Positions 3,213 through 57,842 are shown, numbered from the stretch's first letter. The stretch: 64,000 bases of DNA from Candidatus Parcubacteria bacterium (GCA_963718875.1 OY970378.1:477373-541372), one strand, 5' to 3'. Program-made: numbers and translations. The notes: generated from the sequence alone by a model not told the origin.

Positions 3213-3232
3213 GCTCAAAACGATCGTTTTTA

Positions 3233-3261
3233 TTGACCTTATGTGGATTCTAGCTTAGTAT
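3233..3261 (+). promoter_or_regulatory. Sigma70-type promoter
   Basis: TTGACC 3233-3238, 17-nt spacer, TAGTAT 3256-3261. Confidence 0.55.
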
Positions 3262-3267
3262 ATTTCT

Positions 3268-3606
3268 TGCTTTACAACTCAACCGAACCAGGGGGTCTTC
3301 GCTGTGTCAGGCAGAATCGACCGGCCAAGAAGCGGCAAGCATGCGGCGCACGATTCTACGAGGCATTACCGCAACTGGAGAGCTCTTCCCGATCAGGGTT
3401 CGGAAGCATCGACAGCTTCTGAGCTACAGAGTGGAGGTTCTTCGTCAACACCGGCGGTCCGTATTGACCGGAGGCGGTCTCTGAGCGCACTTCTGTCACC
3501 GCAACAGCTTCGTCGGCTTTCGTCGTAACCAACAACAGCCTGGGTTCTCGAGCTTTTGCCACCTGGCCTGCACGAAGTTGTGTGGGTCAGGTGGCTGTTC
3601 TTTTTT
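3268..3606 (+). ncRNA. G+C-rich ~340-nt candidate structured RNA, unclassified
   Basis: Promoter at 3233-3261; terminator GCCACCTG (3558-3565) / CAGGTGGC (3588-3595) plus T6 at 3601-3606; local hairpins (AGAATCG..CGATTCT, GAAGC..GCTTC) and a long-range GAACCAGG/CCTGGGTTC pairing; ORFs in both strands are Arg/Ser-rich and look like junk. Confidence 0.4.
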
Positions 3607-3705
3607 AGGTTGATTGAACGCATGTTTTGTTGTAAAATGCTTTAGTCGTAAGAGCATTGTCTCTTGGAAGCCATATAATAACTAATATGGCTTTATATCA
3701 CACTT

Positions 3706-3936
3706 TTGAAGGAGGTGATTGTATTGTTGCAAGTAGTCCGCAAGGATGAAAAAGAGTCTCTAGAAAATCTAATTCGCCGCTTTAATAAAAAAGTTCAGCA
3801 ATCGGGAATTCTAGGTATAGCTCGTCGTAAAAAATATTTTGAGAAGCCTTTAAGTAAGCGTGAACAGCGCGAAATTGCCATTCGCAAATCTGCCCGTAAG
3901 GAGCTTAAAGCTAAACAATATTTGGGTGTAAAATAA
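3706..3936 (+). CDS. rpsU: 30S ribosomal protein S21
   Basis: Basic 70-76 aa protein ..ESLENLIRRFNKKVQQSGI..; GGAGG at 3711-3715 suggests the true start is TTG 3724/3727 rather than 3706. Confidence 0.85.
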   Translation: MKEVIVLLQVVRKDEKESLENLIRRFNKKVQQSGILGIARRKKYFEKPLSKREQREIAIRKSARKELKAKQYLGVK

Positions 3937-8099: not shown

Positions 8100-9416
8100 A
8101 TGGCGGAAATACTTCCAGAAGTCGAGACTTTTGCTCGAATCAAGGTGATCGGTGTTGGTGGCGGTGGTGGAGCCGCTGTCGAACGAATGATAAAGAGCAA
8201 GGTACAAGGCATAGAGTTCGTGGCCGTGAATACAGACGCGCAAGCTTTGCATTATTCACACGCACAAAGAAAGCTTAATATTGGGAAGCAAACAACCCGC
8301 GGGTTGGGAGCCGGAGCAGATCCAGAAGTTGGTCGAAAAGCAGCCGAAGAGAGCGAGAATGAAATTGCCGAGCTGCTCAAAGGTGCCGATATGGTTTTTA
8401 TTACAATTGGTGCTGGCGGTGGTACCGGTACCGGGGCGGCTCCTATAATTGCAGCAACAGCTCGTGAAACTGGGGCTTTAGTTGTTGGTATAGCTACTAA
8501 GCCATTTACCTTTGAAGGTGAGCGTCGTAGGCGTATTGCAGATGCTGGTATTATTGAGCTTAAAGACAATGTTGATACGCTAATAACAATTCCTAATGAT
8601 CGATTGTTGCAGATGATTGACCGAAAAACGTCGCTTTTGGACGCATTTAGTGTGGTTGATGAAGTTTTGCAACAAGGTGTACAAGGTATATCAGATCTTA
8701 TAACCATTAATGGGTTAATAAACTTAGACTTTGCTGATGTCAAAGCTATTATGCATAATGCGGGTTCGGCATTAATGGGAATCGGCCGTGCCTCTGGAGA
8801 CAATCGAGCGATTGAGGCTGCTCGTCAAGCTATCGATTCTCCTTTACTAGAAGTATCTATTGATGGCGCCAAAGGTGTCTTACTTAATATTACGGGTGGT
8901 CGTAATATGACCATGCATGAGATTGATGAGGCAGCTAAAACAATTACTGGCGCCGTTGATCCTGATGCCAATATTATTTTTGGAGCTGTTCTTGACGAGT
9001 CGTTGGATGATGATATAAAAATTACGGTAGTGGCAACCGGTTTTGAAAATAAGCCCCGTGAAAGGCTTGATCACCATCGAGTTCCTGAGCAAGAACCCGA
9101 ACCCGAGGTCTACACGAGTCCCGTGCTGGCGGAAAACCGTAAGCCCTTTATTGACGAACGCCCCCGCTTTAGTGAGCCGGATGAGGTTGTGGACGAGCCA
9201 GTCATTAGCCCAAGAACAGTTAGCCCACTTGGTAGCATTGAACCAGAGCCCGAAAATTACGATGAGCCGGATAGCTTTTTAAATGATACTCCTCGTCGAA
9301 TGCTGGAAGGGCCTATGATTGAAAAGGCTGAAGAACCCGCTGCTACGGCTAACCGTGATATACCTAGTGATGATGATTTAGATATACCTGCCTTTATTCG
9401 CCGCAAGGTTGAGTGA
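8100..9416 (+). CDS. ftsZ: Cell division protein FtsZ
   Basis: Tubulin signature [10 protein letters not shown]; long acidic/Pro-rich linker; C-terminal peptide [12 protein letters not shown]. Confidence 0.95.
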
Positions 9417-9423
9417 TAGACGC

Positions 9424-9530
9424 TTTCTAAGTGCGCTCTACAGGATCACTCCTGCGGCTATGCACTCCGCGTACCTAGTGTACGTCTCGCTTGCGTTGCT
9501 CGTCGTTCTTTGCAGTGCATCACTTAGAAA
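9424..9530. repeat. Imperfect palindromic intergenic repeat, family copy R1
   Basis: Outer arms TTTCTAAGTG / CACTTAGAAA; core GCACTCCGCGTAC..GTACGTCTCGCTTGCGTTGCTCG resembles the copies at 10201, 51167 and 55492. Confidence 0.7.
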
Positions 9531-9582
9531 TCCTCTATGAAGATTGCTTGCTCTTTTGTTCGCCAAGGGTGTTCATCTTTTT

Positions 9583-9854
9583 CCAATGTCGTCCCGACAC
9601 CTTGCCTTGATTAAGATAGGTACCACCAAACTGTCAGTACTTTTTATTTTTAGCTCTTTAGTCCAGCCTAAGACCGTTTGAGATGATTTATGTCTTTTTT
9701 GGTGTTATCTCAAGTTTATGGCATTCAAAGTCTAAGTTCTGTAGCGAGGGTAACTTATAATCCTTTTGGCTGCCTAAGGTAGTACTTTGACTACTGACAG
9801 TTTGGTGGTGCCTAGTTAAAACACCACCAGTGGATGTGTCTGGTTGATACTTTT
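9583..9854 (+). mobile_element. MITE-like ~270-bp element, copy 1
   Basis: Terminal inverted repeats GGTACCACCAAACTGTCAGTAC (9619-9640) and CTACTGACAGTTTGGTGGTGCC (9791-9812); whole segment recurs reverse-complemented at 26812-27083 with only about ten differences in the core, by hand alignment. Confidence 0.75.
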
Positions 9855-10002
9855 ATAAATGGTATTCGTGATGAATCCCGGCGTTAATTTAAAGAGAGCT
9901 CAAGGCCATTAAAAAGCCACCGTGAGCTCTTTGAAGATCCATTTCGCTACTTAAAAGTATGGCCGTTTTTCGTTTAAGTGGACAGAACCGAAGCCTTTGT
10001 GC

Positions 10003-10031
10003 TTGACAGGCTTAATGGGTTTCGCTAATAT
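10003..10031 (+). promoter_or_regulatory. Strong sigma70-type promoter
   Basis: TTGACA 10003-10008, 17-nt spacer, TAATAT 10026-10031. Confidence 0.6.
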
Positions 10032-10038
10032 AGCATTC

Positions 10039-10140
10039 ATGAAGTCTCAAAAAATGTGTGTACAACTAACCACGACTCGCCGACAAGCTTTGGCTCTTGG
10101 CGTTTTAATTGTGGCCGCACGCAGTGAGAGGCTTTTGTAA
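10039..10140 (+). CDS. Candidate leaderless 33-codon small hydrophobic peptide (or sRNA)
   Basis: ATG lies 7 nt after the -10; translation MKSQKMCVQLTTTRRQALALGVLIVAARSERLL; unit ends at the terminator 10167-10193. Confidence 0.3.
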   Translation: MKSQKMCVQLTTTRRQALALGVLIVAARSERLL

Positions 10141-10166
10141 CTTTTCCTAAAGAGTAGAATTTTTGC

Positions 10167-10193
10167 AAGAGCCTCCAACCGGAGGCTCTTTTT
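10167..10193 (+). terminator. Intrinsic terminator
   Basis: AAGAGCCTCC-AACC-GGAGGCTCTT followed by TTT. Confidence 0.8.
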
Positions 10194-10200
10194 AGTTTTA

Positions 10201-10320
10201 CAACTTACGTACTTGGCACATTTCTGCGGCAGCACTTGTGTTTCTCGCTCAACGTACTTTCGTGTACGTCTCGTTGCGATACTCGGTGCTTTCTTGAACT
10301 GTACTCAAGTGCATAAGTTG
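10201..10320. repeat. Imperfect palindromic intergenic repeat, family copy R2
   Basis: Arms CAACTTACGTACTTGG / CTCAAGTGCATAAGTTG; 5' arm nearly identical to R5 (AACTTACGYACKTGGCACATTTC). Confidence 0.7.
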
Positions 10321-10335
10321 TAAGAATAGCGTTAT

Positions 10336-10412
10336 GGGGACTAGGTGTCTGGGCTATGACACGTCTTGCATTATCGGTGCAAGGAAGGAGGTTCAAATCC
10401 TCAAGTCTCCAC
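10336..10412 (+). tRNA. tRNA-like gene: Ala-type acceptor stem, canonical D and T loops, aberrant anticodon arm
   Basis: Acceptor GGGGACT/AGTCTCC with G3:U70 and discriminator A; D stem GTGT/ACAC with a GG-containing loop; T loop GGTTCAAATCC; anticodon arm is a 7-bp helix with loop TTATCGG (central triplet ATC) and only a 2-nt variable region; CCA not encoded. Confidence 0.5.
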
Positions 10413-10890
10413 TGCAGTACCTACCAAAACCAAAAAAGGGGAAAGTAGTGAGAAATTCTGTTCGAAGCCTCCCTGGATGGACCACCTGTTCTCTTCACTT
10501 TGGGGCGAGTTCTATCGCAGAAGCTCGGGTGAAAGCTCTAGGGTTGGTGGGCATGGCCGATGACGCCTCAGTTAAGGCGGCATTAAGGGGCTGGACCATC
10601 AGGCAGGTGATAGTTCGGGATGAGCGTTTCATCGCTTTGGTCGCAGAGCTAGAAGTTCTTGGAGTACATCTCAAAGAAAAGGGCGTTCCGCGCTCGTGGA
10701 GGGTCTCGAAAGAAGAAGCTTCAACTCTCGCTGCTCAGTAGTACAGGGAGTCGTCCATCTGATGGGAGGAAGCCCAAACAGGGTGGACAAGGGTGCTGCA
10801 AAAAGTTTTAAAGTTGGCGATCCTAACTTTGAGACTTGGCCTCCGAAAGACGTGATAACAGCGTGTCTTTTGGGGGCCTTACCCATGTTA
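10413..10890 (+). other. G+C-enriched segment of uncertain coding status, downstream of the tRNA-like gene
   Basis: ORF 10334..10741 begins inside the tRNA-like element; only its C-terminal ~60 codons (MADDASVKAALRGW..EEASTLAAQ) look protein-like. Confidence 0.25.
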
Positions 10891-10901
10891 TAATTTACGT
10901 C

Positions 10902-11162
10902 ATGATAGCCTACATTTTGTACAATAAAGATACCCCAATGGAGCGCGATGTACGGTATTTTGCCAAGCGTCTCGAATCGTTACAGGTGCAAAGCAAACTA
11001 GTTGAAGCCGATTCAGTTGAAGGAATTAGTTTTACGGAAAATTATGACTTACTTGCTCGACCGTCGCTTGTTTTAGCTACAGACAATGGCGTACTTATTG
11101 AGCGTTGGCAGGGTGAGCTACCTTTGGTGGAAAATGTAAGTTATTTGGCTCACCAATCGTGA
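10902..11162 (+). CDS. Hypothetical 86-aa protein (leaderless start)
   Basis: Extended -10 TGTTATAAT at 10886-10894, ATG 7 nt downstream; lies between ftsZ and yggT, where sepF/ylm genes sit in Firmicutes, but no SepF motif was recognised. Confidence 0.55.
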   Translation: MIAYILYNKDTPMERDVRYFAKRLESLQVQSKLVEADSVEGISFTENYDLLARPSLVLATDNGVLIERWQGELPLVENVSYLAHQS

Positions 11163-11227
11163 CGCAAAAATGCTCTTGTCGCTCAATGGGCTGTCCCGGC
11201 AAGTACTTTCAAGAAAGTTGGTCGTAG

Positions 11228-11500
11228 GTGAGCCAGTTTGTAAGCATTCTGTTAGTGTTTTTTAACTTATTTGTTATTGCCTTTAATGCTATTTTGATTA
11301 TACGGATTGTTGTAAGCTGGATTATGCCCGACATGCAGGCAAATTGGTTTGGTCGCTTATTGATTGATACAACTGAACCAATATTGGCACCGGTGAGGAA
11401 AATTTTACCGGGGGGTGGAATGATTGATTTGGCGCCGATGGTGACAATAATTGGTCTTTACGCCTTGCGAACATTGATATTTAGTTTGCTATTTCGCTAG
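11228..11500 (+). CDS. yggT: YggT/YlmG family membrane protein
   Basis: 90 aa, two TM helices, typical YggT layout; conserved position between ftsZ and ileS. Confidence 0.75.
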   Translation: MSQFVSILLVFFNLFVIAFNAILIIRIVVSWIMPDMQANWFGRLLIDTTEPILAPVRKILPGGGMIDLAPMVTIIGLYALRTLIFSLLFR

Positions 11501-11559
11501 CAATGCGTCATTATGTGGGTACAAAGTAAAAGCGTGTCGACTAAATGACAAGTGGTTAT

Positions 11560-11711
11560 CAGCCACTAGCTAGCGAGAAGAACAGCAAGCTAATTGCCTA
11601 CTAGACCTTGCCGGTGTGCCCCGTAAGAGCACAAATGAAGTGTCCATCTGGATAAGCAGGGTGGTACCTCCCGTTAGAAGTAATGGGACCCTGCAAACGG
11701 ATGGTTTTTTT
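11560..11711 (+). promoter_or_regulatory. T-box leader upstream of ileS
   Basis: T-box sequence AGGGTGGTACC at 11658-11668, then a hairpin ending in T7 (11704-11710); RBS AGGAG at 11717-11721; 5' boundary approximate. Confidence 0.7.
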
Positions 11712-11728: not shown

Positions 11729-14700
11729 ATGAAAAAAGTCGAACAAGCTAACTTTCCCGAATTTGAGCAAGAGATGCTTAAAATATGGGATAAGGAAAAG
11801 ACTTTTGAACAAAGCCTAGAGCTACGAAAAGGATCCAAGCGGTTTAGTTTTTACGATGGGCCTCCTTTTGCTAATGGCCTGCCACATTATGGACACGTTG
11901 TAGCAATCACCGAAAAGGATTCGATGACACGTTACAAAACTATGCGTGGGTATTTTGTGCCTCGCCGGAATGGTTGGGACACTCATGGGCTACCGGTAGA
12001 GTATGAAGTCGAAAAACAGTTAGGTATTTCAGGGAAAAAACAGATACAGGAAATGGGAGTAGATAAGTTTAATGAAGCCGCCAGGGCCAGTGTCTTTAAA
12101 TACAAAGAGCATTGGGAAGATTTTATGACTCGTATTGGCCGATGGGCCGATAAAAACTCGTATGCTACTTTGGACGATAGCTATATTGAAAGTGTTTGGT
12201 GGGTTTTAGGTCAGCTTCATGAAAAGGGTTTGATATATCGAGGATTCCGCTCTAACCCGTATTGCCCACGATGCGCCACTCCTCTTTCTAATTTTGAGGT
12301 GAACCAGAATTATAAGGACAATGTGTTGGACCCAAGCGTTTTTGTGAAGTTCGCTTTGGTTGAAGATCCGAACACAAGCCTGCTGGCTTGGACGACGACT
12401 CCATGGACGCTTCCGGCCAATGCGGCTTTGGCTGTTGATTCGGCGGCTGAATACGTGACGGTAGAATTGTTGGCGGATGGTGATGGTTGGGAAAAGGGGG
12501 AGAAGCTGATACTCGCGAAGAAGCGGATTGGTGAACTGGATCTGAGGAAGGCTGAGTATAAGGTAGTTAAAACACAGCAGGGCAAAGAGTTAGTCAATAA
12601 AATGTACTCTTCATTGTATGACTTGGCGATGAAAAGGCCTCCCGTTGAGTGGTCAGGTGCATCCGAAGGTCAACCTGGCCGCCCCAGAGCCAACCAAGTT
12701 TATGAGGATGACTCGGTTAGTCTTGAGGATGGGACCGGTATTTTACATATTGCTCCAAGATATGGAGAAGCCGATCTAGATTTGGGCATTAGGGAAGACT
12801 TGCCACTAATAGAAAGCGTTGATGGTAATGGACTTATGGCGGAGTCTTTTAAAGAAATTTCCGGGCTTGAAGACATTGTCGGGATGTTTTTTAAGAAGGC
12901 TGACCCGTTAATTATCGAGGATCTAGCTAAAAAAGGTCGCATCTTTGCCGCCGAATCTTTTGAGCATACTTACCCGTTTTGTTGGCGCTGCGAAACGCCG
13001 TTGATGTATTTTGCTATGCCGAGCTGGTTTGTAAAGGTAACAGAATTAAGAGACAAGCTGGTGGCTAACAACGAAAAAATCAATTGGGTGCCTAAGCATA
13101 TTAAGACTGGTCGTTTTGGTAATTGGCTGGCCGAGGCGCGCGACTGGAATTTTAGCCGCAATCGGTTTTGGGGTGCGCCTATCCCAATTTGGGTTAATGT
13201 GGACGACGAAACTGACTTGATCATAATCAAGTCAGTCCAAGAGCTGGAAGAGCTTTCTGGAGTTAAAGGAATTGATTTGCATCGTCCGAGTATAGATGTG
13301 GTTATACTCGAGCGCGACGGCAAAACATATAAACGAGTGGAAGAGGTGTTTGACTGCTGGTTTGAAAGCGGGTCAATGCCTTATGCCCAAGATCATTATC
13401 CGTTTGATGATAAAGAGAATTTTGATGATAAATTTCCGGCGGAGTTTATAGCCGAAGGCTTGGATCAGACGCGGGGCTGGTTTTACACCCTCCATGTTCT
13501 TGGCACGGCTTTGTTTGACAAGCCGGCGTTTAAGAATGTTATTGTTCACGGAATGGTTCTGGCGGCAGACGGGAAAAAGCTTAGTAAAAGATTAAGAAAT
13601 TACCCTGAACCATCAGAAATTTTTAATGGGACTGGAGCTGATAGTCTAAGGTTTTTCCTTATGAGTAGCCCAGTTGAAAATGGCGAAGATGTTCGTTTTA
13701 GCTACGATGCAGTCAATGAAGTTAAGCGCAACGTCTTTATGACGCTATGGAACGTCTTATCCTTCTTTACGACCTATGCCGAAATTGATAAATGGAAACC
13801 GAATACAAAAATTGTACAGCCTAAATCAAATAATGTCTTAGACGAATGGATGCTTGTAAGGCTAAACCAAACAACAGCCATCATGACGAAAGCGGCGGAT
13901 AGCTACCAGATTTCAAAAGCCGTAGAACCTTTAAAGGACTTGATTGACGATTTATCCAATTGGTACGTAAGACGTAGTAGGCGAAGGTTTGCCAAGAACG
14001 AAAGTAAGGCTGATAAGCTTCAAGCATTTGAAACGTTGCACTACGTATTGTTGCGAACTTCACAACTACTTGCACCTTGGTCGCCGTTTGTAAGCGATAA
14101 GGTGTGGCGAATTATTACCGAGGGAATGGATATTCCCCGCTCTGTGCATTTGAGTGACTGGCCGGAAGTTGGAGAAATTAGTAATGGAATATTACTCAAT
14201 GACATGAAAGAAATGCGTGATTTAGTTACCGAAGGTTTGGCTCAGAGGGCGGCAGCAGGAATTAAGGTGCGCCAGCCTTTAGCAGATGCACGATACGCAG
14301 GCAAAAAGCTGGATGATAGGTTAGTTGAAATTGCGGCCGAAGAGCTCAACGTCAAGCGACTTATAAATGACCCCACAGAAGAGGAAATTTCAAGTCGATT
14401 TGAAAAGATTGTTCCCGGTTCGACTGGTTTCAAACATGAGCCAGGGTTGCCGTCCAAACTGGTTTCCGTAAGTCGATTGGATAATCTTGTTGATCAAGAT
14501 TCTGGTGTCGAACAACTTGAAGAAAGTTTGAGTATAAAAAAAATAATATTGAATACTGAAATGACTCAAGAGTTAAAGCTGGAAGGCTTGGCGCGGGATC
14601 TTATACGCCAAGTGCAAGTTGCGCGCAAAGAGGCCGATCTTCAAGCCAATGACGTCATAAATCTGCTACTTGGAGTTGAAGGCGAGGCTGCAGAGGCGGC

Positions 14701-16534: not shown

Positions 16535-16834
16535 ATGCAAGCAATTATCACCACTGGTGGCAAACAATACATCGTAGCCAAGGACCAAACTCTAGAGGTA
16601 GAGTTATTGGGCGAAGTCAAAAAACTTGAATTTGACGTACTTATGACTATGGATGGGGATAAATTTCAAGTTGGCGCACCTTTTGTGGCTGGTGTTAAAG
16701 TAAAGGCCGAAGTGTTAGAGGAAACAAAGGGTGAAAAAATTAAAGTTTTAAAGTTTAAGGCGAAAAAGCGCGTCAAAAAGCTTACTGGCCACCGTCAGCA
16801 CTATTCCAAGATTAAAATCGTCTCCATCGGTTAA
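16535..16834 (+). CDS. rplU: 50S ribosomal protein L21
   Basis: MQAIITTGGKQYIV.. start; ORF track start 16403 is an upstream extension. Confidence 0.9.
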   Translation: MQAIITTGGKQYIVAKDQTLEVELLGEVKKLEFDVLMTMDGDKFQVGAPFVAGVKVKAEVLEETKGEKIKVLKFKAKKRVKKLTGHRQHYSKIKIVSIG

Positions 16835-16835
16835 A

Positions 16836-16861
16836 AAGCCGCCCAACCGGGCGGTTTTTTA
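16836..16861 (+). terminator. Intrinsic terminator after rplU
   Basis: GCCGCCC-AACC-GGGCGG followed by T6. Confidence 0.85.
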
Positions 16862-26631: not shown

Positions 26632-26811
26632 GGATAGGAGTATATCAGGAAATCGCTCGGCAGGCAACATTAGTGGGTCTGGGTGCTGTCCACTTAAATG
26701 GAACGACCAAGCTTTTAAGTGGCGTAAATGGATCTTCAAAGCGCTCTCGGCGGCTTCTTCTTGGCCCTAAGCTCTCTTATAATTCCGGGAATCATCACTA
26801 ATGTCATCTCT

Positions 26812-27083
26812 AAAAGTATCAACCAGACACATCCACTGGTGGTGTTTTAACTAGGTACCACCAAACTGTCAGTAGTCAAAGTACTGCCTTAGGCAGCCAA
26901 AAGGATTATAAGTTACTCTCGCTTTAAAGCTTAGACTTTAAATGCCATAAACTTGAGATAACACCAAAAAAGACATAAATCATCTCAAGCGGTCTTAGGC
27001 TGGCCTAAAGAGCTAAAAATAAAAAGTACTGACAGTTTGGTGGTACCTGCCTTAATCAAGGTAAGATGGCAGGGCGACATAGG
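26812..27083 (-). mobile_element. MITE-like ~270-bp element, copy 2 (inverted relative to copy 1)
   Basis: TIRs GGTACCACCAAACTGTCAGTAG (26854-26875) and GTACTGACAGTTTGGTGGTACC (27026-27047); reverse complement aligns with 9583-9854. Confidence 0.75.
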
Positions 27084-27246
27084 AACTTAAAAGGATGCCG
27101 CCAACCAACTGTTGGTATTGTTTGAGTAGTAAAAACCTGGTATAGTGGTTTGACATTACAAACTAACCATCAACTTTGGGTTATTAATTCCTCCGCGGCC
27201 TTAAACGAAAGGTGCGGCTGCCTGAAGTGAAGATAAGGAAAAAATT

Positions 27247-31097: not shown

Positions 31098-31374
31098 GAG
31101 CGAGCTTGATATTTAGAGTCTAACTCGCTTACTGTAAGAGGGCGAGCTATTTCACTTGAAGGTACTTAGCTTTCTATAGGTCTAAAGCACACACGTTTAA
31201 AGTGCTTAAAAACCAGTCTACATTAGACTTATAGTTTAAATGATAACAACCACACTTCCTTGAATTTAGAGCCTAGCCTGTCAGTTGGCGGTTTAGGACG
31301 GCAGCGGCGGAGGGGTTTTGAGTTTAGGGATTATGATAAATATATTTAGATGTCCTTAATTAACCTCATCGTTT

Positions 31375-31646
31375 AGATCGATGTAGCTTAGATTTGACGG
31401 GGTGACGGGGGTTTGATAGGCTAGAGTCAAAGCTGTGAAGGGGTATCCCGCCCTGGAGCCGTCGCCGATGGCGAGGCGAGCTGCCGGTGATGAGCCGAGC
31501 CGGACCCCAACCGTTATAGTGGGGCTGAAAGTATGTTTCAGCATTAAGGCTGTATTAGTAATAATGCAGTGAAGGCAAGATGGTACCGCGACTCTTTAAT
31601 CGCTCTTGCTAAACACTTTTTGTGTTTAGAGAAGAGTGGTTTTTTA
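31375..31646 (+). promoter_or_regulatory. T-box leader upstream of the tRNA-binding protein and proS
   Basis: T-box sequence GATGGTACCGCG at 31579-31590; terminator CTAAACAC-TTTTT-GTGTTTAG extended by AGAAGAGTGG and T6 (31640-31645); G+C-rich stem region upstream; 5' boundary approximate. Confidence 0.7.
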
Positions 31647-33394: not shown

Positions 33395-33426
33395 CAAGAT
33401 ACAAGATACAAGATACAAGATACAAA
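33395..33426 (+). repeat. Tandem heptad array (CAAGATA)x4 abutting the mreB start codon
   Basis: CAAGATACAAGATACAAGATACAAGATACAAAG ends 3 nt before ATG 33430; no SD present. Confidence 0.9.
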
Positions 33427-38665: not shown

Positions 38666-38795
38666 AACTTAATCTTTTGCGCACTTCGGCGTCGTAGCCT
38701 CTAGTTCGCATTCGGCGTATGTCTAATACGCCTCTTTCGTCAGCTGACGGATACGATCTTCGGTTCCTCCTTGAATTGCATCAAAACCTTAAGTT
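38666..38795. repeat. Imperfect palindromic intergenic repeat, divergent family copy R3
   Basis: Outer arms AACTTAA / TTAAGTT, apical hairpin GGCGTATGTCTAATACGCC, ..CACTTCGGCG.. resembles R2/R5. Confidence 0.5.
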
Positions 38796-50963: not shown

Positions 50964-50992
50964 TTGACTTTAATTACTCAATGTGGTATATT
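50964..50992 (+). promoter_or_regulatory. Sigma70-type promoter with extended -10
   Basis: TTGACT 50964-50969, 17-nt spacer ending in TGG, TATATT 50987-50992. Confidence 0.55.
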
Positions 50993-51010
50993 GAATTATC
51001 TTCGTTTTTT

Positions 51011-51113
51011 GCGGGGATTTGTGAGAGTGGCCAATGCCATATGGCCTTGATGCGAGAGTATCAAATAACTATTTTTCCGAACCGCTAAGATCGTTCGGCT
51101 CACAAACCCCCGC
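51011..51113 (+). ncRNA. ~100-nt multi-helix structured RNA candidate (riboswitch-like or sRNA)
   Basis: Closing helix GCGGGGATTTGTGAG (51011-51025) / CTCACAAACCCCCGC (51099-51113) enclosing hairpins GGCCA..TGGCC, TTGAT..ATCAA and CCGAAC..GTTCGG. Confidence 0.4.
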
Positions 51114-51166
51114 ATTAAAGACGGCGACCTTTGACAGTCGAATAATCTAAGATCATTAGAGAAACG

Positions 51167-51282
51167 GCTTGCAACTTTGGCTTATTTCGTCGTTGCAGCT
51201 TGCGCTCCGCACTCACCGTACCATTAAGTACGGTTCGCTTGCGGTGCTCGCTGCGCCTAGAACTAAGTCCAGATTTGCAAGC
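51167..51282. repeat. Imperfect palindromic intergenic repeat, family copy R4
   Basis: Arms GCTTGCAA / TTGCAAGC; core TGCGCTCCGCACTC..CGCTTGCGGTGCTCG shared with R5. Confidence 0.7.
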
Positions 51283-51336
51283 CTTGCAAGAAGTACAAAT
51301 ACAAATCTAATACAAAATACTTGCTTCGCATTAACC

Positions 51337-51403
51337 TGCAAGCAGTTATTGTTTCGTTAACTAGGGGAGACCTATGATGTTAGCGAAACGTTATCTGCTT
51401 GCA
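51337..51403 (+). promoter_or_regulatory. 25-nt inverted repeat upstream of the G+C-rich island
   Basis: TGCAAGCAGTTATTGTTTCGTTAAC (51337-51361) vs reverse complement of GTTAGCGAAACGTTATCTGCTTGCA (51379-51403); four mismatches. Confidence 0.5.
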
Positions 51404-51512
51404 TGAAACTGTGCAAGCGAGGATTCGACACTTAGTCGAATTCAGTTGCTCTACCGAACATACAGAAACCACAGACCAGGGTGAGAACTCTGGCAGAGCA
51501 AAGGAAAAGACC

Positions 51513-52448
51513 ATGTCCGACCAGACCGGAGGACCCGGTACCACCGCCCCACCCCGCCGACCCACGCTCCAGGAGCTCGCCGACCAGGCGAGAGCCACGA
51601 TCGAGGAGCAGGCTCGACAGGCGAATGACCTCCAGGGTCAGCGCTCCGCCATCAACGCGATCAGCGGTCGAGTGGCGCAGCACGACGACGCCATCGCTGA
51701 CCTCCGGGACGCTTCGGCCCAGCAGGCCGACGCCGTGGACCGCCTCGGCCAGCGCACGCTGGTGGTCGAGGGACGCACGGACTCGTTGGAGGACTTGGCT
51801 CGCGCCAACGCCGCCGGCGTGGCCGGGCTGACCGCCAACATGGCTGACCTGACCACCAACGTCAACACGCTGGCCACCACGGTGGGCCAGCACGACACCC
51901 GTCTCGACGCCGTCGAGGACGCCGTGACGCCGGCCGCTATGCGGACGGTCGTCACCGAGGTGGTCGAGGAGCGCATGCGCGCTGTTCGGTTCAACTGGGT
52001 GGCCTTCGCCGTGGTGGCGATCGTGGGCTTCATCATCGACCTGTTGGTGTTCTCCGAGATGGGGAGCTTCAACAGCGCCGAGGCGCCGAAGCTCTCCAAG
52101 CACCTCACGGACGTCATGCACACGCAGAACTTCCTGGCCGTCATGCTCGTTGTCCTGGCCCTCGCCATACTCATCGCCCTCATCGTTCCGGTGGTCGGGC
52201 AGGACGAGCGTCCCAGGCAGGACCGCCAGCCCAGGCCGCCTCGGCAGCCCGGATCCGGCGGTGGTTTCATGGCCGGTCTTCGCAACGTTTGGAGGAGGGG
52301 TCGCGGTACGCCCGCTGCCACTGCGCCCATCCCGGCCAACTCCACGCCGGTGGCGACGACGAACCCGTCGGCCTCGTCCAACGCGCCCACTCAGGTGCTG
52401 CCGGCGGTGCCGACGTCCGGTCCGACGCCCTCATCGGGCAACCCGTAG
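51513..52448 (+). CDS. High-G+C island gene A: coiled-coil protein with two TM helices and a Pro-rich tail
   Basis: AAGGAAAAG before ATG 51513; third codon positions almost all G/C; Ala/Asp/Leu periodic N-terminal ~160 aa, TM helices FNWVAFAVVAIVGFIIDLLVF and FLAVMLVVLALAILIALIVPVV, then RPRQDRQPRPPRQPGSGGG.. Confidence 0.7.
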   Translation: MSDQTGGPGTTAPPRRPTLQELADQARATIEEQARQANDLQGQRSAINAISGRVAQHDDAIADLRDASAQQADAVDRLGQRTLVVEGRTDSLEDLARANAAGVAGLTANMADLTTNVNTLATTVGQHDTRLDAVEDAVTPAAMRTVVTEVVEERMRAVRFNWVAFAVVAIVGFIIDLLVFSEMGSFNSAEAPKLSKHLTDVMHTQNFLAVMLVVLALAILIALIVPVVGQDERPRQDRQPRPPRQPGSGGGFMAGLRNVWRRGRGTPAATAPIPANSTPVATTNPSASSNAPTQVLPAVPTSGPTPSSGNP

Positions 52449-52517
52449 TCCACGCGGTTCTTCAAGTGGATTGTCCCAATTCAAATACCTCCTAGCGTCA
52501 AGCAAAGAGGGAACAAC

Positions 52518-52547
52518 CCTCTGTCCGCCCTTCGGGGCGGACAGAGG
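52518..52547 (+). terminator. Hairpin terminator after island gene A
   Basis: CCTCTGTCCGCCC-TTCG-GGGCGGACAGAGG. Confidence 0.7.
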
Positions 52548-52647
52548 AGCAACTTTTACTTCCATGGATAGTAGTCCGCGTGAGAAGCAATTCTTACTCG
52601 GTTTCTGTTCATGGTGCAATCGGCACCCAAACGATAAGGAGGGTGCC

Positions 52648-53826
52648 ATGAGCACCAGAAGAGGTCCTGTTCTGATCATCGTGTGTCTGCTGATGGCAGC
52701 GGGGGCTTTGCTGTTCAAGTACGGCAACGGCCCAACGCCGGCAGTGGCACAGACGCCGCCCACGGTGCCCGTTTCGGACGTCTGCAAGGACGTCCCGGGC
52801 AACGTGCCGAGGTGGTTTGCCAAGGAGACCGACGGCAACAAGTTCGGTCCGGCGGCTCCGTTTGACCTTGGTCCCGCCAGGAAGGCTCAGCACGAGGTCC
52901 TGTGCCTCGACCCGGCCAACCTGGTGATCACCCAGGAGACCATCGACGGGAAGTTCAGCAGTCCGGCAAACCGGGCTGCCCGGACTCGCGTTCTCGTTGC
53001 CAACCCCACTGCGCGGTTGGCAGCGGTGGCCTATGTGCAGGCAGAGTTGGCCAAGGCCAAGGAGGTTCGGCTGGAGGTCCACACGGGACCCTACCAGACC
53101 TTCTACATGACCACCGACGGCGACGTGCCGGAGGTGTTCCAGTCTGCAGGGAGCTTCACCGAGGCACGGCACGTTCTCGTGTACGACTTCGGTAACGGTC
53201 GCACGGTCAACTTCGTACTGGAGTGCAACTTCCAGGGGGAGTTCCCCGGGCCGGTCAAGAACGTGCCGGTGGCAACGCCGGGCACTGTGCCGGCGCTGGT
53301 TCAGCCGGGGCCCACCAGCCCGCCGCCGACGACGTGCCAGTCGACCAACACCTGTTCGACCGTGACCAGCCCACCGCCCGTGTGCTGCGGACCGCCCCCG
53401 ACGACGTGTCAGGTCAACTGCGGTCCGCCCCCGACGACGTGTCAGGTCAACTGCGGTCCGCCGCCGACGACGTGTCAGGTCAACTGCGGTCCGCCGCCGA
53501 CGACGTGTCAGGTCAACTGCGGTCCGCCGCCGACCGTTTGCACACACAAGTGCGCGGGAGAGGACGTTGCGGTCAGTCCGAGTCTGGATCCTGTCGTTTC
53601 GGGACTGGCTGCGGGCAATGCCGCACCCACTGCGGTGGCAACACCGGTCGTGACGGCGCCTCCGGCGCCGCCTCCGCCCGTGACCACAGCCACGCCACCC
53701 GTGACGGCTCTGCCGTCCTCCGATGGCGTGGCAGCTCCACCGCCTGTAGTGGCTCCACCGTACGTGGCGCCCGATGCGGGCACTCCGTCCAACCCGACGA
53801 CGGGAACCATTCCGCCGCCGCCGTAG
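52648..53826 (+). CDS. High-G+C island gene B: secreted or anchored protein with CGPPPTTCQVN tandem repeats and a Pro/Ala/Val-rich tail
   Basis: AAGGAGGG RBS 5 nt before ATG 52648; N-terminal signal/anchor MSTRRGPVLIIVCLLMAAGALLF; ~220-aa globular region; 11-aa Cys/Pro repeats; ORF track start 52150 overlaps gene A and the terminator. Confidence 0.7.
   Translation: MSTRRGPVLIIVCLLMAAGALLFKYGNGPTPAVAQTPPTVPVSDVCKDVPGNVPRWFAKETDGNKFGPAAPFDLGPARKAQHEVLCLDPANLVITQETIDGKFSSPANRAARTRVLVANPTARLAAVAYVQAELAKAKEVRLEVHTGPYQTFYMTTDGDVPEVFQSAGSFTEARHVLVYDFGNGRTVNFVLECNFQGEFPGPVKNVPVATPGTVPALVQPGPTSPPPTTCQSTNTCSTVTSPPPVCCGPPPTTCQVNCGPPPTTCQVNCGPPPTTCQVNCGPPPTTCQVNCGPPPTVCTHKCAGEDVAVSPSLDPVVSGLAAGNAAPTAVATPVVTAPPAPPPPVTTATPPVTALPSSDGVAAPPPVVAPPYVAPDAGTPSNPTTGTIPPPP
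53386..53535 (+). repeat. 33-bp tandem repeat, about 4.5 copies, in frame within gene B
   Basis: TGCGGTCCGCC(C/G)CCGACGACGTGTCAGGTCAAC repeated head to tail with one or two substitutions. Confidence 0.95.
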
Positions 53827-54037
53827 GACACCACTTCTGCCCATTCGGGCAGGGGTCTACCCCAGGGTCTGGGGTGGTGCGCAAGCGCCACCCCGCCCTG
53901 TGGGTATACATATTCTTAATGATTTTGGATTATTCGATTGCTCCAAGGGTTAGTGCCCTTTAACATTTAGCGTCCAACTTAACTTGTAGATCATATTAAA
54001 TTCATTTTAACGTTCATTATTTAAAAGGAGAGCACAT

Positions 54038-55479: not shown

Positions 55480-55491
55480 GTGTCTGAGGCA

Positions 55492-55623
55492 GAACTTACG
55501 CACGTGGCACATTTCGGCGCAAAGACTGCGCTCCGCACTCGTCCCCGGATCAAGTCCGGGGCAGGCTAGCGCTTGTTGCGGTGCTCGTCTTTGCATCCGA
55601 ACTGCACTCACGTGCGTAAGTTC
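55492..55623. repeat. Imperfect palindromic intergenic repeat, family copy R5
   Basis: Perfect 15-bp outer arms GAACTTACGCACGTG / CACGTGCGTAAGTTC; core TGCGCTCCGCACTC..GCGGTGCTCG; apical hairpin CCCCGGAT-CAA-GTCCGGGG. Confidence 0.8.
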
Positions 55624-55773
55624 TGGGGCAGGATCTGGACGCTCATCCGGCTAAGAGTTACTGAAACGGAGCATCCTCACCAGGGCGGGGACTTCCTGTT
55701 TAGCATGACAATTGGAGGTTAGATGCTCTTAAAACGAAGGTGATTTAGTCGTTGCTAGGGTATAATTAGGCTT

Positions 55774-57018: not shown

Positions 57019-57699
57019 GTGATTTTGTTTGATCGTGTGACAAAAATGTATGCCAATAAAAGTGTTGCCTTAAGTGGTGTGAATTTGCACATTCAGCCCA
57101 AGGAGTTTGTAACCATTGTGGGATCAAGTGGGGCGGGTAAATCCACGCTTATAAAGCTGTTGACGAGGGAAGAAACCCAGACTTCTGGAAAAATAATTGT
57201 TGGGGGGATTGATTACGACACTATTGATAAAGCTCATGTGCCGCAGCTAAGACGCAAAATCGGGGTAGTGTTTCAAGATTTTAAATTACTACCTAATCGC
57301 AGTGTATTTGAGAACGTTTCATTTGCATTGGAGGTCTCTGGAACGCGCAGTCGTGAAATTAAGCGGAGTGTGCCAAAAGTGCTCCAGCTGGTGGGCTTGC
57401 GCGGTAAGGATAAAAATTTCCCCGAAGAACTTTCAGGGGGGGAGCGACAAAGGGTAGCAATCGCCAGAGCGTTGATTCGCCAGCCCAAGATCTTGATCGC
57501 TGACGAGCCAACCGGGAACTTGGATCCTAAAAATGCTTGGGAAATTATCGAGTTATTGCTTAAAATTAATCGTTTTGGAACAACGGTATTGCTGACAACT
57601 CATAATAAAGAGATAGTTAATGCCTTGAAAAGGCGCGTCATAACGATTAATCGAGGTAGGATTGTGAAGGACGAAGAACAGGGTCGCTATGCTATTTAG
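57019..57699 (+). CDS. ftsE: Cell-division ABC ATPase FtsE
   Basis: Walker A GSSGAGKST, signature LSGGERQR, Walker B ILIADEP; GTG start 6 nt after TAGAAT. Confidence 0.9.
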   Translation: MILFDRVTKMYANKSVALSGVNLHIQPKEFVTIVGSSGAGKSTLIKLLTREETQTSGKIIVGGIDYDTIDKAHVPQLRRKIGVVFQDFKLLPNRSVFENVSFALEVSGTRSREIKRSVPKVLQLVGLRGKDKNFPEELSGGERQRVAIARALIRQPKILIADEPTGNLDPKNAWEIIELLLKINRFGTTVLLTTHNKEIVNALKRRVITINRGRIVKDEEQGRYAI

Positions 57700-57708
57700 G
57701 ATTGTGAA

Positions 57709-57842
57709 TCAAGATACAAGATACAAGATGCAAGATGCAAGCAAACCACAAGTAGCAAGTCTCAAACTGCAATTGTTTGGATCTTGGGGATTTGAAGCCA
57801 GGGCGTTGTTTGTGTCTTGTGTTTTGTTTCTTGTTTCTTGCA
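57709..57842 (+). repeat. CAAG-periodic heptad arrays in inverted orientation (ftsE-ftsX spacer)
   Basis: CAAGATACAAGATACAAGATGCAAGATGCAAG (57709-57740) and CTTGTGTTTTGTTTCTTGTTTCTTG (about 57808-57840); the arms form an imperfect long hairpin. Confidence 0.8.

Follow-up and report, generated by a model that had tools for sequence, protein, structure and literature searches.

What fills the stretch between ftsZ and the next conserved gene at positions 9417-10901, and where does this material originate? The interval is the largest gene-poor gap of the window, by which the whole analyzed stretch of 64,000 nucleotides is meant, and it still amounts to 917 nt when an annotated 135-aa ORF is counted as a gene. 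The gaps between ORFs of at least 80 aa in the window showed a median of 48 nt, and 17 of the 61 gaps exceeded 150 nt, which makes the statement of the preliminary description that spacers are usually under 150 bp roughly correct with several exceptions. On its 3' side, the interval is bounded by a conserved 86-aa ORF followed by yggT and ileS. Each of the six features previously listed within the interval was found again in its place, and the earlier reading as an accessory insertion site is partly supported. With moderate confidence, we consider the interval to be a composite, in which an older module shared with relatives would have received three recent, genome-specific repeat insertions, and in which the leader of this module would act as a ribosome-dependent attenuator. 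The interval comprises the following features:

9416-9538, plus strand: R1, a long-hairpin repeat of ~125 nt (inverted repeat) beginning at the ftsZ stop codon (nhmmer E 1.9e-22)
9581-9990, plus strand: copy A of a ~410-nt repeat, consisting of a 216-nt hairpin core and two smaller hairpins behind it
10003-10031, plus strand: leader promoter of the sigma-70 type (TTGACA-17-TAATAT; 10/12 matches)
10039-10140, plus strand: leaderless small ORF of 33 codons, MKSQKMCVQLTTTRRQALALGVLIVAARSERLL, the proposed leader peptide
10128-10137, plus strand: segment 2, GAGGCUUUUG, with two alternative pairing partners, namely 10041-10048 at the start of the transcript and the terminator's 5' arm
10167-10197, plus strand: leader terminator of the intrinsic type, with a G+C-rich stem of 10 bp (10167-10190) and a T run behind it
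10193-10328, plus strand: R2, second copy of the hairpin family, inserted past the leader terminator and ahead of the tRNA-like RNA (nhmmer E 2.6e-27)
10336-10411 or 10412, plus strand: tRNA-like RNA, likely from tRNA-Ala, a cloverleaf according to folding
10448-10741, plus strand: ORF97, a probable small orphan protein gene of ~97 codons with GTG start and the ribosome-binding site AAGGGGA at ~10436-10442
10840-10876, plus strand: hairpin of high G+C past ORF97 and ahead of the next promoter, found by reading the sequence
10889-10904, plus strand: TATAAT box, 7 nt and ATG, where the conserved 86-aa gene has its leaderless start

The repeat insertions (R1, R2 and the ~410-nt repeat) make up ~45% of the interval, and the remainder recurs 3' of ftsZ in Saccharibacteria-like relatives whose FtsZ is 76-88% identical. 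An alignment of the ftsZ-yggT interval with relatives had been proposed earlier as a check. Compared to L084, the nearest relative with sequence (FtsZ 88% identical), the window comprises two additional blocks, one of ~575 nt, in which a spacer separates R1 from the 410-nt repeat, and one of ~125 nt (R2), and all three repeats are missing from L084 at exact junctions. R1 is also missing in L105. The junction between leader and tRNA-like RNA is free of R2 in L081 as well as in L084, and the 873-nt interval of L081 consists of the module alone. Judged from these sequence comparisons, all three repeats entered the joints of the module recently, as insertions specific to this genome.

A variable content at this place was also observed for other relatives. 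In L083, a hairpin of the R family lies directly 3' of ftsZ, and the position that R2 takes in the window is occupied by a hairpin of another kind with a direct repeat of 10 nt on its flanks. Some relatives have only 14-470 nt at the locus, others an operon of GCS2 and an M20 peptidase, and more distant relatives nrdR-nrdJ together with tRNA genes. Across the clade, the distance from ftsZ to the next gene ranges from 14 nt to ~5.6 kb, and therefore the proposed insertion hot spot between ftsZ and the next conserved gene is borne out by both content and spacing. For P0004, the closest relative with a long contig (87% identical), the gene table shows a gene-free gap of 1120 nt after ftsZ. The species-representative genome collection contained no relative above 69% FtsZ identity. 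A metagenome scan queried with the C-terminal codons of FtsZ yielded 14 loci, mostly from relatives of higher G+C; the module was absent from all 14, which can serve as "empty" sites. A short-read contig of the same genome breaks at ~9826, inside the 410-nt repeat, and the present analysis accounts for the breakage of short-read assemblies at the interval. No match to the whole interval was obtained by blastn in phage and plasmid collections, and the inverted-repeat arm was absent from the viral contigs searched.

The interval had furthermore been suggested to hold a cluster of small RNA genes. This applies to one tRNA-like RNA and one terminator-bounded leader transcript, but not to the palindromes R1 and R2 and the MITE-like element, which are dispersed repeats rather than demonstrated RNA genes. 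In a search against Rfam, no family reached its gathering score anywhere in the window, and the matches within the interval were restricted to a sub-threshold tRNA match and a chance match driven by a terminator.

The tRNA match belongs to the tRNA-like RNA, which ARAGORN names 'Asp-ATC' and which Rfam scores with 22.9 bits, below the gathering score of 29. Counterparts are present in L083, L084 (first 16 nt) and L081, and for the sequences from the window, L083 and L081, folding at minimum energy gives a cloverleaf. In the window copy, the acceptor stem GGGGACU/AGUCUCC contains G3·U70 and precedes A73, and the T loop reads UUCAAAU; in L083, the acceptor stem is GGGGCCG/CGGCUCC plus A. According to a list of the cloverleaf pairs made by hand for these two copies, they share GGGG, G3·U70, A73 and the T loop, whereas positions 5-7 of the acceptor stem and the D, anticodon and T stems differ and yet stay paired. 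The bacterial alanine identity set, consisting of A73, G2-C71, G3·U70 and G4-C69 (PMC9976931), is complete in both copies. The copy of L081 carries G3-C70 and G73 and fails this set.

The anticodon arm of the window copy comprises a 7-bp stem and the loop UUAUCGG, which contains no Ala anticodon and in which the anticodon would be AUC. At the same place, L083 has a UUCG tetraloop and L081 an extended arm of 50 nt. In addition, the window copy shows A8 in place of U8, and no CCA is encoded at its 3' end, where the sequence continues with ACUG. L090 has a canonical tRNA-Ala(UGC) upstream of the orf86 homologue, and its acceptor stem is almost identical. Altogether, the tRNA-like RNA is likely derived from tRNA-Ala, would keep the alanine acceptor identity and would be unable to decode. 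Its release from the transcript would probably be the work of RNase P and RNase Z, and charging of the processed RNA with alanine could follow. A bona fide tRNA gene was rejected on account of the low Rfam score, the missing usable anticodon and the lack of conservation in the loop. A tmRNA was rejected as well, with no candidate from ARAGORN in the window, no match to the tmRNA family of Rfam and a contiguous cloverleaf. The tRNA-like domain of tmRNA and alanine minihelices share with the window RNA the acceptor stem with G3·U70 and A73, the T arm and the missing usable anticodon. In contrast to tmRNA, the window RNA builds its cloverleaf, D and anticodon arms included, from 76 contiguous nt that are not split around an mRNA-like region, and it shows neither a tag ORF nor an SmpB context.

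The same features could belong to a functionless remnant, either a decaying tRNA-Ala pseudogene or a leftover attachment site of an integrated element that had carried the G+C-rich ORF as cargo. The sub-threshold Rfam score and an AUC anticodon that is never used by bacterial tRNA-Asp or tRNA-Ala point in this direction, as do the real tRNA genes at the same locus in L090, the position of the locus in an insertion hot spot, and the fact that ORF97 and its counterparts are of higher G+C than their surroundings and without relatives. On the other hand, many substitutions separate the copies of the window and L083, yet all four stems have stayed paired, G3·U70 and A73 are kept in both, and the anticodon has been disabled in three different ways while the fold was otherwise kept. 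Moreover, the surroundings showed neither an integrase nor a direct repeat of the tRNA 3' end. A functionless remnant is an unlikely explanation, although one to be taken seriously. Recent independent decay of real tRNA-Ala genes is conceivable, since only two full copies of the alanine type are available.

Upstream of the tRNA-like RNA, the leader unit of ~155 nt is bounded by its promoter and terminator. Its small ORF starts 7 nt past the -10 box, and the mRNA is therefore leaderless. Six genomes retain TTGACA, the -10 box, an ATG or GTG 7 nt further on, GAGGCTT and the G+C-rich terminator; among these, the -35 box and the core of segment 2 are invariant. The length of the small ORF varies between 21 and 33 codons, and its stop codon lies on or beside the conserved GAGGCUUU segment. 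In this frame, no stop codon occurs in any of the six genomes between +1 and a point -4 to +13 nt from GAGGCTT (product of probabilities against shuffles 2e-4), while the other frames close early. The codons of a G-L-[LF]-[IVF]-V motif vary mainly at third positions. Near the C-terminus, the peptide carries a motif rich in Leu, Ile, Val and Phe (36-45% L+I+V+F+M) without a tandem run of a single codon.

Segment 2 (GAGGCUUU) has two alternative partners. It would bind either the initial ~10 nt of the transcript (1:2) or the 5' arm of the terminator (2:3), and the latter pairing forms an antiterminator that would exclude the terminator hairpin (3:4). The 2:3 duplex was calculated at -16.4 to -21.0 kcal/mol, a value reached by at most 1.8% of the shuffles in each of the six genomes. 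The 1:2 duplex was significant in four of six and no better than shuffles in L084 and L086. Among the minimum-energy folds, those of four genomes showed 1:2 together with the terminator, and those of the other two the antiterminator. One pair covaries, position 9, with U-A in the window and L105 and C-G in L084 and L081. Since only six genomes of one clade are compared, the covariation is thin, with this one clean pair and differing helix extensions. On the level of sequence, the components of an attenuator are thus present, namely a translatable short ORF proximal to the promoter, an intrinsic terminator and a mutually exclusive antiterminator, and the 155-nt unit likely represents a ribosome-dependent leader-peptide transcription attenuator.

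Such an attenuator would work as follows. The sigma-70 promoter would give rise to a leaderless transcript, the first codon of which opens the ORF of 21-33 codons. If no translation takes place, 1:2 and 3:4 would form and transcription would stop. A ribosome that has arrived at the stop codon would cover segment 2, and transcription would stop again. A ribosome stalled earlier, in the Leu/Ile/Val-rich motif, would leave segment 2 free for segment 3 and permit read-through, which in the window would yield the tRNA-Ala-derived cloverleaf RNA and the mRNA of ORF97. We infer both this response to the position of the ribosome and the signal that would be read. Several observations speak against the attenuator: the thin covariation; the 1:2 pairing that resembles shuffles in two of six genomes; the lack of a tandem run of one regulatory codon in the peptide; a cargo (tRNA-like RNA and orphan ORF, or GCS2 and M20 peptidase) that is not made up of obvious genes of amino-acid biosynthesis; a weak promoter-like site on the terminator of L081; and the nearby ileS, which has a T-box-like leader of its own. 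This divergent leader, 1.6 kb downstream, was the only one of its kind found; a T-box as the identity of the 155-nt unit was rejected, with no Rfam T-box match in 8500-11480. A weak Phe_leader match in L081 (E 4.4) was not significant.

Alternatively, the 155-nt unit could be an independent gene that encodes a trans-acting small RNA, a functional micropeptide or both and is closed by an ordinary terminator, with the tRNA-like RNA and ORF97 expressed separately. It possesses its own promoter and a strong terminator, its peptide motif is conserved at the amino-acid level, the cargo downstream differs among genomes, and in L081 a weak promoter-like site overlaps the leader terminator. Furthermore, the similarity of segment 2 to the terminator's 3' arm makes some 2:3 complementarity automatic. 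Nevertheless, the 2:3 pairing reaches past the terminator stem and covaries, and the stop codon is always positioned on or beside segment 2, though the peptide tails vary in frame and length. Separate expression is also opposed by L081 and L084, where the tRNA-like RNA follows the T run without room or a consensus promoter in between; likewise, a promoter scan of the window revealed no further consensus promoter on the plus strand between the leader and ORF97. A free-standing gene is improbable, with some weight left to it.

The proposed attenuator can be compared to known leaders. Classical trp, his and leu leaders contain a tandem run of one regulatory codon. The window leader shares with the trp, leu and ilv attenuators a short ORF at the extreme 5' end, an intrinsic terminator before the genes, an exclusive antiterminator with its 5' strand at the end of the small ORF, and a third pairing that hides the antiterminator strand without translation; as in the ilv and leu leaders, the peptide is rich in Leu, Ile and Val. 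It deviates from them in that segment 1 coincides with the very beginning of the transcript and takes in the start codon instead of lying inside the ORF, in that a tandem run of one regulatory codon is missing, and in that the cargo is neither a biosynthetic operon nor a tRNA synthetase. Leaderless leader-peptide attenuators have been documented in Deinococcus deserti (PMC4007540) and mycobacteria (10.1101/834739) and described in Corynebacterium glutamicum (PMC3890552). A literature search gave no description of such leaders in the Saccharibacteria-like CPR clade. Saccharibacteria and other CPR have tiny genomes, and little is known about their gene regulation. If true, the conserved leaderless leader-peptide switch would provide a testable case of ribosome-coupled transcription control in CPR. 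In two relatives, the same leader stands ahead of the GCS2/M20-peptidase operon, which would mean that one regulatory leader stays in place while the genes under its control are swapped.

The repeats that interrupt this module belong to two families. Copies beyond the interval are located as follows:

51166-51286, plus strand: R4, a copy of the hairpin family (nhmmer)
55490-55624, plus strand: R3, a copy of the hairpin family with a fold z of -7.6 (nhmmer)
26682-27085, minus strand: copy B of the ~410-nt repeat, ~92% identical to copy A

For the hairpin family, four clear copies and one weak copy were found in the 64 kb, and further copies in L083 and L085. R1 has outer arms of 18 nt with 89% complementarity and on its own folds no better than shuffles (z -0.77), compared to a z of -4.8 for R2. 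In the family alignment, 90% of the cells are paired versus 70% in shuffles. Multi-copy intergenic imperfect palindromes with a conserved core, as found here, are of the REP/ERIC-like type. An integron attC was rejected, as the outer stems of R1-R4 lack the core sites RYYYAAC and GTTRRRY and no cassette array is present.

Copy A of the ~410-nt repeat carries core arms at 9608-9639 and 9792-9823 (32 nt, 84% complementary). Considering both copies, the arms of the 216-nt core measure 22-32 nt with 84-100% complementarity and thus represent terminal inverted repeats as expected for a MITE; a target-site duplication was not observed, since no direct repeat flanks the ~410-nt copies. Only two copies are visible, both of which share a further ~190 nt beyond the hairpin core, and 1.1 Mb of related loci contained no copy. 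Copy A ends 13 nt 5' of the -35 box of the leader promoter, and copy B lies at the same 13-nt distance upstream of a leaderless rpmE promoter.

This regular placement raises the question whether R1, R2 and the 410-nt repeat are recruited functional structured RNAs, for instance 3'-UTR stabilisers or processing sites, rather than selfish insertions. Besides the identical orientation and 13-nt distance to a -35 box in both 410-nt copies, all seven clear or probable copies of the R family share the direction of the flanking genes and are situated just past stop codons or terminators, and the hairpin has persisted through 21 double-sided changes in 37 pairs. However, the pairing of a palindrome can also be maintained by template switching at the DNA level without selection on an RNA, none of the three matches an Rfam family, all three are present or absent at orthologous sites of close relatives, and the 410-nt repeat is restricted to this genome in the data compared. 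A recruited RNA function is rather improbable. As insertions, they resemble the REP, ERIC, Correia and RUP repeats and MITEs, which are likewise short, non-coding, multi-copy and intergenic, form long hairpins, and are present or absent at orthologous sites; the L083 hairpin with its flanking 10-nt direct repeat fits this group. The R family differs from MITEs in having a conserved apical part and an outer stem that varies between copies, whereas MITEs conserve their terminal inverted repeats. Also unlike MITEs, none of the three repeats was found to be flanked by a target-site duplication, and no partner transposase was identified in the 64 kb covered of the 1.19-Mb genome. Both families are now defined and can be used as lineage markers.

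Combining the attenuator with the tRNA-like RNA leads to a more speculative proposal, which we regard as quite unlikely: a dedicated non-decoding alanine carrier that a clade of Saccharibacteria-like bacteria would maintain beside its cell-division genes, with the full acceptor identity for AlaRS, no anticodon, a T stem weakened in EF-Tu binding and a supply gated by the attenuator. It would deliver alanine for a non-ribosomal reaction, e.g. peptidoglycan cross-bridge formation or lipid alanylation, or could titrate AlaRS, RNase P or the CCA-adding enzyme. A non-proteinogenic tRNA-Gly used for cell-wall synthesis is known from S. aureus, where certain features weaken EF-Tu binding (PMC4052509). 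These features are echoed by a mismatched or missing 49:65 pair in both alanine-type copies and by the D loop of L083, which lacks the GG pair; the non-proteinogenic tRNA-Gly keep their anticodons, whereas the window RNA does not. No gene of the Fem or MprF type was found among the 20 large ORFs of the window, which covers 5% of the genome. In the tRNA-tufB operon of E. coli, tRNA genes are co-transcribed with a protein gene. Compared to this operon and to mitochondrial tRNA punctuation, the window likewise shows a tRNA-shaped element directly 5' of an ORF, probably on one transcript, from which cleavage by RNase P and RNase Z would separate the pieces. The window differs in that the element is non-decoding and that an attenuator ahead of it would control its expression. 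If charged, a tRNA-Ala derivative that keeps its charging identity without an anticodon would add to the few tRNAs for non-translational work.

The last part of the interval is characterized by its composition. Across ~10400-10800, the G+C content is 0.52-0.555, compared to 0.37-0.47 in most adjacent windows, and this stretch is most likely accounted for by ORF97, whose G+C at the three codon positions is 0.61/0.49/0.51. The ORFs of L081 and L083 at the same position are homologous to each other (E 1e-6) and gave a weak colinear alignment with ORF97 (hhalign P 0.009, probability 4%). ORF97 had no match in Pfam, PHROGs, NCBIfam or PADLOC and no BLASTP match to P0122. Two database searches for relatives returned only the three positional counterparts, and the AlphaFold model was poor (pLDDT 58). 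The description of the interval as apparently non-protein-coding consequently needs to be qualified, as the 155-nt unit contains a conserved leaderless small ORF and the G+C-rich stretch is most likely an orphan gene of 97 codons, but it is right in so far as the two ORFs take up only ~27% of the interval. Conserved protein genes do not fill the interval, and the larger ORF is without relatives beyond three genomes.

That ordinary protein genes, missed or badly annotated, fill the interval is very improbable: although automatic annotation calls a 135-aa ORF at 10334-10741 (recorded as P0001), its first 26 codons traverse the cloverleaf and it has no relatives in 5.8 billion proteins (word-index) or 1.84 billion representatives (profile search), ORFs of at least 50 aa elsewhere in 9417-10330 have no Pfam match, and pseudogene remnants of nrdR/nrdJ, searched for in the interval by tblastn, were not found. 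The annotation of the 135-aa ORF has to be corrected, because this ORF runs through the tRNA-like RNA.

Behind ORF97, hairpins comparable to the one at 10840-10876 are located at the same place in L081 and L083. The leaderless layout of the following 86-aa gene is the same in relatives, and leaderless starts of the form TAnnnT plus ATG are common in the window.

The gene order ftsA-ftsZ-[interval]-86-aa ORF-yggT-ileS-ftsW was common to the window and its relatives. The nearest named relatives of FtsZ (8100-9416) belong to Candidatus Saccharimonadales (76% and 69% identity), and the organism, whose source contig comprises 1,189,924 bp, is Saccharibacteria-like and belongs to the Candidate Phyla Radiation. 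With a median intergenic gap of 48 nt in the window, the interval between ftsZ and the 86-aa ORF (orf86) is the largest gap; further large gaps without an ORF of at least 80 aa lie at 3213-3935 (723 nt) and 31098-31568 (471 nt). Inverted-repeat, promoter/terminator, ARAGORN/Rfam and G+C evidence showed all six features listed in the preliminary description to be present at their coordinates:

9416-9538, hairpin repeat R1
9581-9990, repeat of ~410 nt, the core of which is the MITE-like hairpin
10003-10197, promoter/terminator-bounded unit of ~155 nt, the putative leader (promoter 10003-10031, small ORF 10039-10140, segment 2 10128-10137, terminator 10167-10197)
10193-10328, hairpin repeat R2
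10336-10411, tRNA-like RNA
G+C-rich stretch, with the probable gene ORF97 at 10448-10741

The proposed insertion hot spot was borne out, since the content between ftsZ and the 86-aa gene varies from 14 nt to several genes among the related loci:

Spacing of 14-33 nt: L104, L094, L100
Spacing of about 95-470 nt, where several sites hold long palindromes of unrelated sequence as well as a small conserved hairpin: L091, L092, L095, L096, L099, L102, L103
Leader module alone: L081
Module and other inserts: window, L083
GCS2 and M20 peptidase: L086
~300-aa gene, nrdR, nrdJ and tRNAs: L088, L090

In L083, a 144-nt hairpin (12246-12409) occupies exactly the position of R2 in the window, at the junction of leader terminator and tRNA-like RNA. 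The perfect 10-nt direct repeat TAGTTCTAGG on its flanks has the look of a clean target-site duplication, and the hairpin would represent a second family of palindromic elements. Other unrelated palindromes of 100-200 nt directly follow the ftsZ stop codon in L091/L097 and L095 (richer in G+C). Because unrelated palindromes follow ftsZ in relatives, it is suggested that the ftsZ 3' end repeatedly attracts hairpin elements. A TATGGT-like box precedes the small hairpin CCGGGACACUAG-UGGAGGGUG-CUAGUGUGCCGG and its U run, which stand closely 5' of the orf86 homologue (L091, L092, L095, L096, L099, L102). The hairpin shows covariation (CACGAG/CUCGUG in L099), displays a Shine-Dalgarno-like GGAGG in its loop and could represent either a tiny sRNA or a terminator.

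In the alignment with L084, the nearest relative with sequence (FtsZ 88% identical), R1, spacer and ~410-nt repeat formed a single window-only block and R2 a second one; all three repeats were also missing from L105 (FtsZ 85%) and L081 (81%). The sole second copy of the ~410-nt repeat (26682-27085, inverted) is about 92% identical, and no copy was found in 1.1 Mb of related loci. Both copies lie in the same orientation 13 nt upstream of a -35 box, which for the second copy is that of leaderless rpmE, and a contig from short-read assembly of this genome breaks at the inner arm of the repeat. R1 and R2 are members of a ~125-nt hairpin family with copies at 51166-51286 (R4), 55490-55624 (R3) and, weakly, 38674-38786, and in relatives directly 3' of ftsZ (L083) and between rpsU and yqeY (L085). 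All are co-oriented with the flanking genes, just past stop codons or terminators. The family keeps its apical part (TGCGCTCCGCACTC, a short hairpin, then GCTTGCGGTGCTCG), and the 17-bp outer stem varies in sequence between copies with its pairing preserved. Paired cells amounted to 90.4% compared to 70.3% in shuffles and 31-43% with slid partners, and double-sided changes affected 21 of 37 pairs, a value reached by none of 500 shuffles.

The leader (~155 nt in the window) was common to six genomes, namely the window and L084, L105, L081, L083 and L086, whose FtsZ is 88-76% identical. In all six, TTGACA stands 17 nt before a -10 box, and ATG or GTG follows 7 nt behind that box; each also has an open frame of 21-33 codons, the invariant GAGGCTT and a G+C-rich terminator with T run; in the window the promoter matches the consensus at 10 of 12 positions and the terminator stem has 10 bp. 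In each genome the frame is open from +1 to between -4 and +13 nt of GAGGCTT, while the other frames close early (product of shuffle probabilities for the open frame 2e-4). The peptide starts with MKSQ in three genomes and VKSQ in a fourth, and five of six contain G-L-[LF]-[IVF]-V, the codons of which vary chiefly at third positions (one Leu is CTA, CTG, CTT or CTC). By these signs the small ORF looks translated. Since TAnnnT-plus-ATG starts recur at several further window genes, including the 86-aa ORF, leaderless translation looks normal here.

Segment 2 (GAGGCUUU) can pair with the transcript 5' end AAGUCUC (1:2) or with the terminator 5' arm (2:3). The 1:2 duplexes have -5.9 to -15.2 kcal/mol and in four of the six genomes outdo 98% of shuffles; the 2:3 duplexes have -16.4 to -21.0 kcal/mol, a stability attained by no more than 1.8% of shuffles in each of the six. 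Position 9 covaries from U-A to C-G, and helix extensions are lineage-specific. By minimum energy, four genomes fold into 1:2 plus terminator and the other two into the antiterminator. Judged from sequence, the three competing pairings (1:2, 2:3 and the terminator hairpin) have the logic of a putative leader-peptide attenuator. The same leaderless leader-peptide logic is found in Deinococcus deserti, with 14 predicted attenuators for tRNA-synthetase and amino-acid genes (PMC4007540), and in mycobacteria (10.1101/834739). The Leu/Ile/Val-rich motif, which holds no codon run, suggests branched-chain amino acids as a possible effector; beside this reading stands the divergent T-box of ileS itself. 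This T-box-like leader (11528-11695) scored 26 bits compared to a gathering score of 93, with an E of 3e-4 in a 261-nt search, and was not picked up by the whole-window Rfam scan. It contains the conserved AGGGUGGUACC, and the GGAG ribosome-binding site is potentially masked by a stretch of CCUCC.

Behind the leader, L086 and L105 carry a GCS2 carboxylate-amine ligase and an M20 peptidase, and the window, L081 and L083 a tRNA-like RNA and a ~100-codon ORF; in L084 the first 16 nt of the tRNA-like RNA precede the contig end. Past the leader terminator, the GCS2 5' UTRs (L105 1880-1998, L086 4055-4188) have in common a conserved stretch, GGCTTCAGGTCAAYCGAYCTG ... GAGTACWTCGA, possibly another regulatory RNA element.

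The tRNA-like RNA of the window was called by ARAGORN and scored 22.9 bits with the Rfam tRNA model (threshold 29). Both this RNA and that of L083 fold into cloverleaves, and they share a canonical T loop and GGGG, G3·U70 and A73, the bacterial alanine acceptor determinants (PMC9976931). Between the two, acceptor pairs 5-68 and 7-66 and the D, anticodon and T stems changed yet still pair. The loop of the anticodon arm reads UUAUCGG in the window; L083 has a UUCG tetraloop there. The RNA of L081 is distinct (43 bits, 50-nt extended anticodon arm, G3-C70). At the corresponding place 5' of the orf86 homologue, more distant relatives hold real or odd tRNA genes, among them a canonical tRNA-Ala(UGC) in L090 with the acceptor stem GGGGACG/CGUCUCC. 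We conclude that the window RNA is probably a descendant of tRNA-Ala that lost decoding and kept the tRNA shape. A proper 49:65 pair is missing in both alanine-type copies, and the D loop of L083 also lacks GG, resembling features that mark the cell-wall-dedicated, EF-Tu-evading tRNA-Gly of S. aureus (PMC4052509). This likeness offers a lead towards a possible non-translational role; 20 large ORFs of the window included none of Fem or MprF type. Between nrdJ and the orf86 homologue, tRNA genes and odd tRNA-like genes form arrays (L090 16562-16710, L088 16640-16987), which include a 73-nt 'Leu-AAG' tRNA without long variable arm, 2 nt before the canonical tRNA-Ala, one copy with a 27-nt anticodon-arm insert and one with an oversized anticodon loop. 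The arrays also hold a class-II-like cloverleaf, at about 16750-16850, that ARAGORN did not call.

In the G+C-rich stretch, the annotated 135-aa ORF has its start within the cloverleaf. If translation begins instead at the GTG at 10448, which follows the ribosome-binding site AAGGGGA, 97 codons result (ORF97), with coding-like codon-position G+C (0.61/0.49/0.51). The ORFs at this position in L081 and L083 are mutual homologues (E 1e-6), to which ORF97 aligns colinearly and weakly (P 0.009). No other relatives were found in two protein libraries (5.8 billion by word index, 1.84 billion representatives by profile), no family matched in Pfam, PHROGs, NCBIfam or PADLOC, and the structure model was unusable. 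The interval had been described as apparently non-protein-coding, which is only in part correct in view of the leader small ORF and the probable gene ORF97; the repeat insertions (R1, R2, ~410-nt repeat) are about 45% of it and ordinary in kind. Of the presumed small-RNA gene cluster there remain a single tRNA-like RNA and a single, putatively regulatory leader. Novel within their known classes are the putative attenuator and the alanine-type tRNA look-alike that has no anticodon.

Elsewhere in the window, at 50965-51110, TTGACT-17-TATATT resembles a promoter and has behind it an RNA-like hairpin of ~115 nt that GCGGGGAUUUGUGAG/CUCACAAACCCCCGC close. Rfam gave no match to it up to an E of 5; R4 lies just downstream. 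The region 51399-53963, with long overlapping ORFs on both strands, a 558-aa ORF without Pfam match and a tandem array of 33-nt units (53352-53549), is rich in G+C and thereby looks compositionally foreign. Short CAAGATA heptamer tandem repeats occur in two intergenic regions (33395-33425 and 57696-57740).
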